Shown: piece by piece, positions 3,629 through 10,236 of the stretch
How positions within the stretch are numbered: the first letter of the stretch is position 1
Layout of the letters: each line of letters starts with the position of its first letter
Source of the DNA: a virus
Lineage: Duplodnaviria; Heunggongvirae; Uroviricota; Caudoviricetes
Length of the DNA stretch: 10,236 bases
Strand: one strand, 5' to 3'
IMG/VR virus record: IMGVR_UViG_3300024518_005076
Notes under the pieces: model-generated
The model's input: the letters and a program-made list of their open reading frames with translations, nothing else
Databases searched by the model: none
What the model was told of the DNA's origin: nothing
Made by a program: the position numbers and the translations under genes

Positions 3629-3698
3629 GCCCGCGTAGTGTTAATCAACACGCAAGTCTCTAAAACTTGAAATCTGGGTTAAAGTCCCAGCGCGGGCA
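3629..3698 (+). tRNA. Amber suppressor tRNA, anticodon CUA
   Basis: Acceptor GCCCGCG/CGCGGGC (7/7), T8A9, D stem GTGT/ACAC, anticodon stem CAAGT/ACTTG (5/5) with loop CT-CTA-AA (anticodon 3660-3662), 4-nt variable loop, T stem CTGGG/CCCAG with loop TTAAAGT, discriminator A, CCA not encoded. Confidence 0.88.
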
Positions 3699-4028: not shown

Positions 4029-4104
4029 GAAGAGGTGGTGTAGCGGAAACACGCCGTCGTGATCGATCAGGGCGGAACCCGAGGTTCAAATCCTCGTCCC
4101 TTCA
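4029..4104 (+). tRNA. Atypical tRNA-like gene with 12-nt palindromic anticodon loop (no assignable anticodon)
   Basis: Acceptor GAAGAGG/TCCCTTC (one A-C mismatch), D stem GTGT/ACAC with GG in the loop, stem CCGTC/GGCGG around GTGATCGATCAG, T arm CGAGG-TTCAAAT-CCTCG. Starts 0 nt after the previous CCA. Confidence 0.75.
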
Positions 4105-7107: not shown

Positions 7108-7319
7108 ATCAGTTCATCGAGCGGCTGGCCTCACTACGCAGTGAAATCGAGGGTGGTGGTGAATCTCCTGTATGTGTTCTGGATACCGACAGGATTGCTG
7201 GCGGATCATGGTATCCTGCCTCGGTCGAAGTCCAGAACGCCGCCCAAGAGACCGCAGATATCTGGGATCTTCCAGTCCATGGAGAGGATGGGGCTGCTCA
7301 GATTATCTCGATCTTCTAG
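7092..7319 (+). CDS. Hypothetical protein (75 aa)
   Basis: SD AAGGGG then ATG 7092 (MYYTLDQFIERLASLRSEIEGGGESPVCV...); ends TAG-AAT-TGA. Confidence 0.65.
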   Translation: MYYTLDQFIERLASLRSEIEGGGESPVCVLDTDRIAGGSWYPASVEVQNAAQETADIWDLPVHGEDGAAQIISIF

Positions 7320-7329
7320 AATTGACTCT

Positions 7330-7917
7330 ATGAGTAAAAGGCATCGCCACAAGAAGCAGAAGCCGAAAAAACCCATCGACTATCTCTCAACACTGGATGA
7401 TCACATCCACATTTGGTGCGATGGAGCGTGCCACCCGAATCCGAACGGGGATGGCGGCTGGGCTTTCTGCTATCAGACTGTCGCCAAAACAGTCAAGTTC
7501 TCGTCCGGAGGCGTCCCGCAGACGACGAACAACAGGATGGAGATCATGGCCATCCTGATGGCTCTTAAGCACTTCACAGAGCCAGCCAGGCTGCTTGTTC
7601 TGAGCGACAGTCGATATGCCGTGAACGGAGCCAGCAGCTGGGCTCGTGCATGGAGCAAGAACGACTGGAGGACTCGTGGGAAAGGAAGGCCGGAAGCCAA
7701 GAACAGGGATCTGTGGGAACAAGTGCTAAAAGCCAAAGATTTTCACATTGATACCAGATTTCAGTGGGTTAAAGGGCATTCTGGCATAGAATTGAACGAG
7801 TTCTGTGACTCTTTGGCTCAAGATGAGAGGGTCGCCCTGTTGCGGGAGCGGTCTAATGAAAAGAGAAGAGAAATCCAGGATGGTCTTTTGTCCTGTGTGG
7901 AAACTAATGAATGCTAA
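7330..7917 (+). CDS. rnhA: Ribonuclease HI
   Basis: Complete RNase HI motif set: WCDGAC, GGW, TTNNRMEI, SDSRY, KNRDLW, WVKGHSG, NEFCDSLA. The start at ATG 7330 is my choice; the track start at 7141 overlaps the upstream gene. Confidence 0.93.
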   Translation: MSKRHRHKKQKPKKPIDYLSTLDDHIHIWCDGACHPNPNGDGGWAFCYQTVAKTVKFSSGGVPQTTNNRMEIMAILMALKHFTEPARLLVLSDSRYAVNGASSWARAWSKNDWRTRGKGRPEAKNRDLWEQVLKAKDFHIDTRFQWVKGHSGIELNEFCDSLAQDERVALLRERSNEKRREIQDGLLSCVETNEC

Positions 7918-8137
7918 GGATGCCGCTGTTTCCGGAGACACAAAAAGCTGCCTCTGGTGGATTAACGAAGCCATGCAGGACGACCTGTCGGGAATTACTC
8001 AACATCCAATGGTTCAGGCTGGGCTGGGCAACAGAAATCTGACGCCAACAAATTCAATTCATTGTCAGCTGTTTGAGCTGGGTGAATCCATGCTCGACTC
8101 TCTAATAGGGGAATATGATGCTCCCGACGACATGTAA
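7907..8137 (+). CDS. Hypothetical protein
   Basis: ATG 7907 overlapping the RNase H stop region (MNAKDAAVSG...); start uncertain. Confidence 0.55.
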   Translation: MNAKDAAVSGDTKSCLWWINEAMQDDLSGITQHPMVQAGLGNRNLTPTNSIHCQLFELGESMLDSLIGEYDAPDDM

Positions 8138-8336
8138 TCTGATCATTATGGCTCTGCGGGGCCAAGGGTCATGCACTGTTGATCAACTGTACCGTCTGAC
8201 TCGACGGGGGAAAACGACCATCAAGGAAGAACTGAAACATCTTGATCTGGGCGAGGAGATTCAGGTTGTGGATGGAATCGAAACCAAGAGTTACTTTCTG
8301 AAGCCGTATGGCCTGGTTGGGGCAAGCAATGAATGA
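8115..8336 (+). CDS. Winged helix-turn-helix DNA-binding protein
   Basis: 'IIMALRGQGSCTVDQLYRLTRRGKTTIKEELKHL...EEI...SYFL' has wHTH helix and wing spacing. Confidence 0.6.
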   Translation: MMLPTTCNLIIMALRGQGSCTVDQLYRLTRRGKTTIKEELKHLDLGEEIQVVDGIETKSYFLKPYGLVGASNE

Positions 8337-8418
8337 AGACCTGAAGCGAAGCCAGTATCTCGGGTTAAGCGACCTTAATACAGACAACGCCCAAAATCAC
8401 GGGGTTGCGGCCCGCTGA
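8329..8418 (+). CDS. 29-aa ORF running into the first attC site (possibly truncated by cassette insertion)
   Basis: ATG 8329 overlapping the wHTH stop; MNEDLKRSQYLGLSDLNTDNAQNHGVAAR*; the last ~10 codons are attC sequence. Confidence 0.35.
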   Translation: MNEDLKRSQYLGLSDLNTDNAQNHGVAAR

Positions 8419-8473
8419 TTTCCTATTCTGTGACGGGGCACAACCGCAACTCCCGTGCATTTTATTGTTCGTC
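8382..8473 (-). repeat. attC site 0
   Basis: AGACAAC-gcccaa-AATCACGGGGTTGCGG...CCGCAAC-T-CCCGTG-C-ATT-ttatt-GTTCGTC; extrahelical T8451 and C8458. Confidence 0.85.
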
Positions 8474-8511
8474 GCCTTTGCCAATACGGCTGATGATGAG
8501 GAGTGGGTACG

Positions 8512-8724
8512 ATGACCGGGAGACTGCTACTGATTCACGTACTGAGCCTGGTGGCTGGAATGCTACTGTTGGCAGCATGGGCGGAAATGAGCGGGCCGAG
8601 TACTTTGCAATGGCTGGTGCTGTTCGCGATGTTTGAACTGCCAATGTTGGCTCTGTTCATAATATCCGGGTGGGACGTGGCAACGCATAGCGAGTCAGAG
8701 TCGTCCGCAGACTCGCCAGATTGA
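8512..8724 (+). CDS. Small membrane protein, two predicted TM helices (cassette 1)
   Basis: SD GAGGAG then ATG 8512; hydrophobic segments 'LLLIHVLSLVAGMLLLAAW' and 'WLVLFAMFELPMLALFIISGW'; acidic tail. Confidence 0.7.
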   Translation: MTGRLLLIHVLSLVAGMLLLAAWAEMSGPSTLQWLVLFAMFELPMLALFIISGWDVATHSESESSADSPD

Positions 8725-8728
8725 GAGC

Positions 8729-8820
8729 GACGAACGACCTGAGCTAACCCGGCGGCCGGGGTTGGCGTTCCTACTTCAAGCGGCGTGGCCGGCCGCTCGG
8801 TGTTGAGCGATTTGTTATGC
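8729..8820 (-). repeat. attC site 1
   Basis: GACGAAC-gacctga-GCTAACCCGGCGGCCGG...CCGGCCGC-T-CGG-T-GTT-G-AGC-gattt-GTTATGC. Confidence 0.8.
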
Positions 8821-9113
8821 CTTCTCCAACTCTGCTGTGGATGTCGATAACGCTATGGGACAAATCAGAGGTTGAGTTTGTAAAGCTAGTCACATTGCCA
8901 TCGCCGTTAGTTCCCGGCGTGGCTGTGTCTATCTTTCCAGGCCTTGACCCGGATGTGCCGCACTGGCTGTTTTGGTCATACGGTGCAAATCCTGTTCTTG
9001 TAGCGAATTTCCGAGAAACAGCGGATGACCAAGACCAACTTGAATGGATGACTGAGGGGTGGGTGCAGATTGAACACTTCCGAAAAGCGTACGAGTGGAG
9101 CCTTGAGGCATAA
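8817..9113 (+). CDS. Hypothetical protein (cassette 2)
   Basis: ATG lies inside the GTTATGC box and the TAA stop inside the GCATAAC box of the next attC; no clear SD, so the start may be ATG 8841. Confidence 0.6.
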   Translation: MPSPTLLWMSITLWDKSEVEFVKLVTLPSPLVPGVAVSIFPGLDPDVPHWLFWSYGANPVLVANFRETADDQDQLEWMTEGWVQIEHFRKAYEWSLEA

Positions 9114-9198
9114 CGACCCGCATCACCGGGCCGTGGAGAACGATTATGAATTCAGAGAAGACGACGACCACGGCTCCGTGTGCATGTGATTGTTATGC
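9108..9198 (-). repeat. attC site 2 (contains SD and ATG of the next gene)
   Basis: GCATAAC-gacccg-CATCACCGGGCCGTGG...CCACGGC-T-CCG-T-GTG-C-ATG-tgatt-GTTATGC. Confidence 0.85.
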
Positions 9199-9439
9199 CG
9201 ATTGCCGCAAGTGTGCTGGTGCTGGTTGGTTGTGGTGTGACGAATTGGACAATCGGGCAGGGCATGATCCGACTGCGTTAGTGGTGGATGACACGCGGTA
9301 TCCGTGTGATGCTTGCGAACGATGCGACATTTGTGGGCGACGAAGCCAGACGACAGAGTTGATACCGGACGGCACGCCAAGCGGTGAATCAGATTTCATG
9401 TGTGCCCACTGCCGTGGCGAGTGTGACTGTTCGGCATAA
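9146..9439 (+). CDS. Cys-rich putative zinc-binding protein (cassette 3)
   Basis: SD GGAG 9135-9138, ATG 9146; CxxC pairs CRKC, CDAC, CDIC, CAHC; TAA in the next attC box. Confidence 0.7.
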   Translation: MNSEKTTTTAPCACDCYADCRKCAGAGWLWCDELDNRAGHDPTALVVDDTRYPCDACERCDICGRRSQTTELIPDGTPSGESDFMCAHCRGECDCSA

Positions 9440-9523
9440 CGACCATAATCACCGGGCCGCGAGTGCGGATCTCCTACCTCAATCCGCTGGGCTTCGCGGC
9501 TCCGGTGGATTTACAAGTTAGTT
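9434..9523 (-). repeat. attC site 3
   Basis: GCATAAC-gaccat-AATCACCGGGCCGCGA...TCGCGGC-T-CCGGTG-G-ATT-tacaa-GTTAGTT; inner GCGGAT/ATCCGC hairpin. Confidence 0.85.
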
Positions 9524-9532
9524 GCCTTTGCC

Positions 9533-9790
9533 ATGACGCAAACGAGCCCGCCCGCATCAACTGACGAGGACTATGGGCCGTCGCTGAGACTGATCGAGAG
9601 TGGGTGTGACGTATTGGTCACGCCCGATTGGTGTGCGTTACTCAGCCGTGCCGCGTCAGGGCGTTGTGTACGTTGGTGGCAGCAATCGATCTCCCGGACG
9701 GTGTTCGAGCGATTGCGGGACGAGCAACGAATCTCTGAAAGGCGCAGGATCGGTACTGTCACAGTTTGGACGGCATCCACTAGCAAATAA
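9533..9790 (+). CDS. Hypothetical protein (cassette 4)
   Basis: 85 aa filling the cassette; TAA in the next attC box; no SD seen. Confidence 0.5.
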   Translation: MTQTSPPASTDEDYGPSLRLIESGCDVLVTPDWCALLSRAASGRCVRWWQQSISRTVFERLRDEQRISERRRIGTVTVWTASTSK

Positions 9791-9875
9791 CGACCGTATT
9801 CACGGGGCGGCGGCTAGACGCTCCCGAATTCAGGACACGGGCAGCCCGCCGCTCCCGTGCAATACATGGTTCGTA
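9785..9875 (-). repeat. attC site 4
   Basis: AAATAAC-gaccgt-ATTCACGGGGCGGCGG...CCGCCGC-T-CCCGTG-C-AAT-acatg-GTTCGTA. Confidence 0.85.
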
Positions 9876-9897
9876 GTGCATACGGGGAGAGGTGGAT

Positions 9898-10104
9898 ATG
9901 GCCAGTCGGTTTGAGGTACAAATCCGCATTGGAGACCATTGGGAGCCGATTAAAATGTGCGACAAGCTGCAATACGCACGAGACGCATTTAAGTTGTGCG
10001 TGACGGAGGACGCTACCGCCCGCGTGGTGGAAGTTATGAACCAGCATGACTCGTCGTTTCGTGATAGCCCACCAGTCCACGCCACAGCGGATCGAACGAC
10101 ATAA
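9898..10104 (+). CDS. Hypothetical protein (cassette 5)
   Basis: SD GGAGAGG then ATG 9898 (MASRFEVQIRIGDHWEPI...); stop 4 nt before the next attC box. Confidence 0.65.
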   Translation: MASRFEVQIRIGDHWEPIKMCDKLQYARDAFKLCVTEDATARVVEVMNQHDSSFRDSPPVHATADRTT

Positions 10105-10107
10105 CAC

Positions 10108-10198
10108 GACGAACGACCGCCATAACCGGGCGGCCGAGGGAGACTTGGAATGACAGAGCAGACGGCGACGGCCGCTCCGGTTGATGGCATGGTTATGC
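10108..10198 (-). repeat. attC site 5 (contains SD and ATG of the next gene)
   Basis: GACGAAC-gaccgc-CATAACCGGGCGGCCG...CGGCCGC-T-CCGGTT-G-ATG-gcatg-GTTATGC. Confidence 0.85.
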
Positions 10199-10236
10199 CG
10201 CATTTACCGACAGAGCGTTCGAAGTTCTTTCAAAGC
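10150..10236 (+). CDS. Hypothetical protein, 3' partial (cassette 6)
   Basis: SD GGGAG 10138-10142, ATG 10150 in the attC loop; open to the window end (MTEQTATAAPVDGMVMPHLPTERSKFFQS...). Confidence 0.6.
   Translation, partial: MTEQTATAAPVDGMVMPHLPTERSKFFQS

Follow-up and report, generated by a model that had tools for sequence, protein, structure and literature searches.

The final 1.9 kb (8382-10198) of a 10 236-nt stretch of viral DNA, IMG/VR record IMGVR_UViG_3300024518_005076 (Caudoviricetes), contain six hairpins of 90-92 nt, of the type formed by the attC recombination sites of integrons; the whole stretch is called here the window. We are fairly confident that these hairpins belong to a cluster of attC sites lacking an integron integrase (CALIN), of the attC type found in Planctomycetota and carried by a phage, the cassettes of which have the attC in first position and are exchanged by the integron integrase (IntI) of the host. 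Every cassette of the window is inverted: the attC comes first and the gene lies behind it, on the equivalent of the attC bottom strand. The canonical arrangement, with the gene on the top strand and the attC after it, is not found in this array.

On the plus strand, the six sites (8382-8473, 8729-8820, 9108-9198, 9434-9523, 9785-9875 and 10108-10198) all start with xxxxAAC followed by G(A/C)CC and end with GTTxxxx; in the first one, the left box is AGACAA|C (the bar marks the predicted crossover) and the right box is GTTCGTC. The consensus calculated with RNAalifold is a stem of 21 pairs, 12 of which show compensatory changes. DNA folding puts all the single-base bulges, two or three per site, on the 3′ arm of the plus strand and none on the 5′ arm: there is an invariant T, a G or C located three bases ahead of the right spacer and, in some sites, a second T. 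The boxes lying on either side of each gene are complementary to each other (9/9, 9/9, 10/10, 8/9 and 9/10 bases), whereas the two boxes within one hairpin have three or four matching bases (AAC/GTT), site 3 excepted. Both sets of features expected of an attC are thus present, namely boxes of the form RYYYAAC...GTTRRRY that pair more fully across the cassette than within the site, and an imperfect hairpin with a central spacer and two to three extrahelical bases on a single arm. A site finder demanding matched boxes within one hairpin failed to detect the sites, because their boxes match across cassettes. A covariance model built from the six sites, R1, scores them at 73-89 bits on the plus strand (82.5, 72.7, 88.9, 79, 89 and 88 bits by order of position; E 1e-17 to 1e-22) and no higher than 25 bits on the minus strand, and it finds no further site in the window; there is no attC family in Rfam. 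An earlier note made from the letters alone (the original prediction) had described the six sites, the extrahelical T plus G or C on their right arm and the matching of boxes across genes, and all of this stands. It also gave spacers of 6 nt on the left and 5 nt on the right: the left unpaired spacer is indeed one base longer than the right on the plus strand, but the exact values depend on where the L boxes are placed.

A pattern derived from the sites found matches in 19 viral contigs and in at least 120 loci of species-representative genomes, 102 of 120 being assigned to Planctomycetota by record title, which bears out the earlier remark that these attC are reminiscent of that phylum. In 80 of these genome loci, R1 detects 329 sites, always on a single strand within a locus. 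An IntI scoring above the TIGR02249 cut-off is encoded by four of the five Planctomycetota genomes tested, and two of them place the site family in arrays adjoining the integrase gene. In Lacipirellula limnantheis I41 (intI at 1 027 730-1 028 680 on the minus strand, 438.7 bits), one site is about 0.7 kb away and an array lies at 3-11 kb; in Novipirellula SH528 (intI at 4 757 824-4 758 774, 404.5 bits), the array begins about 1.2 kb further on. The sites of the window are therefore genuine integron attC sites of Planctomycetota type.

Four independent lines agree on the strand that recombines, and so the plus strand of the window is the equivalent of the recombinogenic bottom strand. The first is the published layout. 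The extrahelical bases are carried by the R″-L″ arm, cleavage separates A from C in the R′ box of the bottom strand, and a G usually follows that AAC (Bouvier 2009, PMC2727003); all three features are true of the plus strand of the window. Its layout is also that of the bottom strands given 5′-3′ in Table S3 of Qi 2023 (PMC9892861), attCaadA7 included, i.e. AAC-6 nt-L′...L″(extra G, then 3 nt)-5 nt-GTT. The second line comes from other phage arrays. In the canonical array of Vibrio phage Va_90-11-286_p16, where intI is upstream and divergent, the bulges of the clear sites are carried by the 5′ arm, as read on the coding strand, and the window shows the opposite; in Tetrasphaera phage TJE1, the experimentally tested bottom strands are on the minus strand, opposite the genes, and R1 matches that same strand. 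Thirdly, the strand recognized by R1 is directed toward intI in both Lacipirellula I41 and Novipirellula SH528. The fourth line is the strand of the bacterial open reading frames (ORFs), as detailed now.

Polarity was determined by taking the longest ORF on each strand in every interval between adjacent sites, with one method for all sources. In the bacterial loci, the ORF is opposite the R1 strand in 200 cases and on the same strand in 15 (p = 2e-42). The viral contigs with such sites give the reverse picture, with 13 ORFs on the R1 strand and 4 opposite, and in the window the count is 4 to 0. If the count is restricted to intervals in which an ORF fills 85% or more of the length on only one of the two strands, the bacteria have 141 opposite and 5 same, and the viral contigs 8 same and none opposite. 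The same-strand cassettes of bacteria are scattered, one or two per array and never more than two in a locus. In the window, codon scores are higher for the plus-strand ORFs; these have ribosome-binding sites and length-matched homologues, and on the source contig five of the six are called genes. Homologues of the third gene occur in further arrays of this site family, where they too are carried by the R1 strand. Furthermore, a sister array (L162, 2518-4049) contains N6_N4_Mtase and Dam genes, supported by Pfam, which share the R1 strand and have their starts within an attC or at its end. From the interval counts, codon scores, gene calls, homologues and these methyltransferases together, we conclude that the inversion, claimed for every gene in the original prediction, is real and not an artefact of ORF choice. 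The sister arrays L157-L162 comprise cassettes for N6_N4 and Dam methyltransferases as well as a homologue of the third, Cys-rich gene, in each case with a ribosome-binding site and ATG in the attC loop. In two of them, L157 and L158, some cassettes are common, at 93-99% identity, and the cassettes in between differ.

The limits of the mobile unit can be read from the position of the genes. No plus-strand ORF crosses the left AA|C and four of them end exactly there; the stops at 9113, 9439 and 9790, singled out previously for that reason, are TAA codons in a ...TAA|C context, and the same is true of the sixth gene, the end of which (GGCATAA|C) matches the right box of site 6. The third and sixth ORFs begin in the loop of an attC, which provides a GGAG-type ribosome-binding site (GGAG plus ATG in site 3, GAGGGAG plus ATG in site 6), and then run across the right GTT box. 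Because of this start in the loop and passage through the right box, the crossover has to be at the left box and the attC travels with the gene behind it. The unit is thus the segment that opens with the C of a left-box AA|C, comprises the attC and its gene, and closes with the AA of the left box that follows.

Blocks with these limits are found elsewhere. An otherwise unrelated contig of 8.2 kb (L152) has only positions 8733-9118 of the window in common, at 95% identity and with different sequences on both flanks; the common block extends from the AAC of site 2, where the predicted crossover is A8734/C8735, to the AACGACC of site 3, and the attC2 is 100% identical (332-423 in L152). The gene of this second cassette differs between the two by one 15-nt in-frame insertion (at 9068 of the window), also seen in the seawater run X6, and by five substitutions. 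Past cassette 2, L152 carries at 729-823 a different AAC...GTT hairpin, with a perfect 13-bp inverted repeat and a branched centre, to which R1 gives no score; since it directly follows cassette 2, cassettes with different attC subtypes can stand side by side. Assembled contigs of four seawater metagenome runs were also compared with the window. One of their branch points is 8733, which is reached from another upstream sequence as well; at 9118, contigs go on into the arrangement of L152; at 9789, a contig of run X6 enters site 5 from a different upstream sequence; and at 10110-10112 there are two other upstream sequences. Branching at left boxes therefore concerns cassettes 2, 5 and 6. In run X1, the contig on cassette 2 (8733-9118) has a depth of 38, as compared with 16-19 in the flanking contigs; the summed contig depth in the same run is two to three times that of the flanks at 8680-8757 and 10084-10236, i.e. 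in cassettes 2 and 6, so that both cassettes are present in more genomes than that of this phage in the same water samples. Exchange of cassettes as units, as had been proposed, is in line with breakpoints that fall at the predicted AA|C in L152 and in the seawater contigs. In one related contig (L153), the array is absent.

What could be the source of the integrase? Two contigs extend the sequence beyond the window, the source contig (L154) and an identical one of 99 kb (L155), and the array ends after cassette 6, about 300 nt to the right of the window end. A tblastn search of the window, L154 and L155 with two IntI proteins found none within about 10 kb on either side, and TIGR02249 has no match in five viral contigs that carry the same sites and of which one is rated 100% complete. 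The array is thus not part of a complete integron, in which intI, attI and the platform promoter Pc would lie beside it, and has the composition of a CALIN (at least two attC and no integrase nearby), with six sites and no IntI within about 10 kb. The expectation that any intI or attI would be found to the right of position 10236 is not confirmed. In L155 the last element of the array is a hybrid box. A terminator-like hairpin and a single small ORF come next, and the 8.9 kb to the right contain conserved genes of the phage (exonuclease, tail-fibre-like, terminase). The hairpin region (L155 1655-1700, about 10540-10585 in window numbering) consists of a perfect 6-bp GC hairpin with a T-rich tail, 13 nt past the last AA|C, and no attI-like box pair is recognizable in it. 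Because the array ends so soon after the window and the next 8.9 kb are phage genes without IntI, an integrase supplied by the host is the better option; the earlier wording, ‘own or host’, is favoured in its second half, and its first half finds no support within about 10 kb.

The mechanism that we propose is as follows. During infection, the IntI of the host would fold the plus strand of the sites, cut between the A and C of the 5′ box and so excise, insert or swap cassettes, presumably between co-infecting or successive phage genomes. Transcription would enter the array by read-through from the phage genes upstream: these have the same orientation, and no promoter-like or terminator-like signal above chance was found within the array, in agreement with the suggestion of the original prediction that a phage operon drives the array. 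Several genes would take their ribosome-binding site and start codon from their own attC loop. As gene-to-attC polarity is fixed within a cassette, host cassettes cannot turn into phage cassettes by recombination alone, and the latter would therefore form a separate, phage-adapted pool. A tblastn search with all the window proteins against loci L001-L151 (two GenBank phages, 19 viral, 120 genome and 10 intI loci) produced no hit, and no cassette is thus common to the window and the sampled bacterial arrays. More generally, we suggest tentatively, as a plausible extension, that Planctomycetota phages might keep a mirror-image cassette pool exchanged among phage genomes via a borrowed host IntI, and might gain from the attC-first design. 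If this is true, the design would couple each gene to the translation signals of its own hairpin and would let the phage operon drive expression. The recombinogenic strand would also be the sense (non-template) strand, and its folding and turnover could increase as a result during phage transcription or replication.

Several points weigh against the proposal of a host-driven exchange of inverted cassettes. Recombination is deduced from shared blocks and contig branch points and was not directly observed. The branch points at 8497 and 9869 fall outside left boxes; the latter coincides with a right GTT box, which may be due to divergence of an attC but would also be compatible with occasional exchange at the right box. 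The gene of cassette 4 is doubtful, with a weak codon score and no gene call in either L154 or L155; that cassette may be non-coding, or contain a poorly predicted gene. In one viral lineage (L004, L006 and L008, from IMG/VR), the strand calls are ambiguous. These contigs have at least 10 sites and cassettes of 420-1170 nt without a dominant ORF on either strand, and allowing readthrough of TAG or TGA still gave no dominant strand; the cassettes may contain several tiny genes, be non-coding, or come from bacterial fragments filed as viral. Moreover, the reason for the reversed polarity is explained by no test done here. One candidate reason could be strand placement relative to phage replication or transcription, because excision is increased by orders of magnitude when the bottom strands are on the lagging-strand template (Richard 2024, PMC13108822).

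The recombinase search, for its part, covered about 21 kb around the array (the source contigs being of 30 kb and 99 kb), out of a genome well over 100 kb, and this leaves room for a phage-encoded enzyme. Exchange could then be host-independent, catalysed by a phage recombinase other than IntI or by an IntI encoded elsewhere in the genome. We find this unlikely, given that no tyrosine recombinase of the TIGR02249 type was detected in the five viral contigs of the same attC family and that the sites are indistinguishable from those beside host intI genes. Another possibility is that the hairpins, although derived from attC, are now mainly RNA or translation signals and that the shared blocks result from ordinary or illegitimate recombination between repeats. 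The ribosome-binding sites and start codons in the loops of sites 3 and 6 and in L162 would fit, as would the fact that the plus-strand hairpin is transcribed within the mRNA. But the breakpoints are at the edge of a 7-nt AACGACC, beyond which the sequences are unrelated, too little homology for homologous recombination, and the complementary boxes that flank each gene are the footprint of circular intermediates; a role as signal and a role in recombination can also coexist, and we judge it very improbable that the former has replaced the latter. Finally, that the array is canonical after all, with real minus-strand ORFs (long ones do exist, e.g. 9780-10190, 136 aa) and plus-strand ORFs that are chance frames in GC-rich DNA, can practically be dismissed, because the former span attC sites and crossover points, have lower codon scores and are not called, whereas the latter fit between the sites, with ribosome-binding sites and length-matched homologues, and the Pfam-supported methyltransferase genes of the sister array are on the R1 strand.

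The genes of the six cassettes, all on the plus strand, are small, and neither Pfam nor PHROGs provided a function for any of their products. The first (8512-8724) encodes a small hydrophobic protein of 70 aa, probably a membrane protein; its ATG is preceded at 9 nt by GAGGAG, the codon score favours the plus strand and the gene is called in L154 (9367-9579). The second (8817-9113, 98 aa) belongs to no known family and has a homologue (P0001) at 91% identity; its ATG is within the right box, GTTATGCC, and its TAA stop finishes at the site 3 AA|C. The third (9146-9439, 97 aa, Cys-rich and zinc-ribbon-like) goes from the attC3 loop through the right GTT box to a TAA|C end; an identical called gene is on record (P0078), and homologues in other arrays (P0082 and P0084) have the same layout. 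Cassette 4 has an open frame of 85 aa (9533-9790) ending at TAA|C. The fifth gene (9898-10104, 68 aa) has GGAGAGG upstream and is called in L154 (10753-10959); a 70-aa form with a GTG start has no exact match on record. The sixth starts at 10150, leaves the window at 10236 and runs to about 10539, giving 129 aa in full (1265-1654 in L155).

The array carrier is a large marine tailed phage, and the array is located in its early/DNA-metabolism region. The surrounding gene content is of phage type: RNase H, a DNA-repair exonuclease, a collagen-like tail-fibre protein, a large terminase and two tRNAs. The tRNA genes are upstream of the array, at 3629-3698 and 4029-4104 (Rfam tRNA scores of 58.5 and 39 bits); one has a CUA anticodon (amber suppressor; Pyl according to ARAGORN) and the other an odd ATC anticodon. 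The last backbone gene before the array (8115-8336, plus strand) is conserved. Contig L153, from a related phage (74-85% nucleotide identity), keeps synteny as far as 8337 and resumes it beyond the array; by blastn, the identity is 74% over 7317-8337 with no alignment after, and between the syntenic flanks R1 finds no site in L153. An insertion of the array at an AAC within an L153 gene was considered and dropped, the alignment past 8337 being unconvincing and the right flank replaced. The end of the window has no exact match among the viral contigs and the metagenome contigs searched, no near match was obtained in the GenBank phage collection, and searching viral contigs for relatives with RNase H or the second cassette protein as single queries found none. 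The host is probably a member of the Planctomycetota, because the sites belong to the resident attC family of the integrons of that phylum.

Integrons are seen as a bacterial device, in which the polarity of attC ensures expression from the platform promoter. A wholly reversed array, in a phage with no integrase nearby, that uses the attC family of the host and bears marks of recent exchange at the usual cleavage position suggests that the same recombination chemistry serves a second cassette pool, open to capture by bacterial integrons but not to expression from their Pc. It would offer phages a route for fast turnover of accessory genes, among which methyltransferases are found in the sister array, and provide a test case for the way in which strand choice, replication and transcription shape integron evolution. 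In addition, attC sites of this kind can give a clue to the host of uncultured phages.

How does this array compare with known systems? The chromosomal integrons of Planctomycetota are the closest in terms of sites: R1 scores them at 60-83 bits, and they have the same length, the AACGACC start, the invariant bulged T and the G/C bulge. They differ in that the bacterial arrays adjoin intI and, of the 215 cassettes that could be decided, 200 have their gene opposite the bottom strand, while the phage array has the reverse polarity and no intI nearby. Inverted single cassettes exist in sedentary chromosomal integrons, and known toxin-antitoxin cassettes of such integrons are inverted. With these (15 of 215 decided bacterial cassettes here), the window shares genes that run against the canonical direction; however, they are exceptions with their own promoter in an otherwise canonical array, as documented for toxin-antitoxin cassettes (Richard 2024, PMC13108822), whereas in the window all cassettes are reversed, lack promoter-like signals and are co-oriented with the phage operon. 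Phage CALINs, including that of TJE1, have already been published (Qi 2023, PMC9892861), and they likewise consist of rows of attC between small accessory genes in phages without IntI; the sites of TJE1, PH101 and P12002L recombine with attI1 through IntI1. In TJE1, however, the tested bottom strands are opposite the genes, as in the canonical case, whereas the genes of the window occupy the bottom strand, each behind its attC. Gene-to-attC polarity is not discussed in that paper, and our full-text searches brought up no account of phage cassette arrays that are inverted throughout. What is new here is the control of polarity between bacterium and phage within one attC family, a strand call anchored to intI and to experimentally tested sites, and evidence at the population level for exchange at the predicted crossover.

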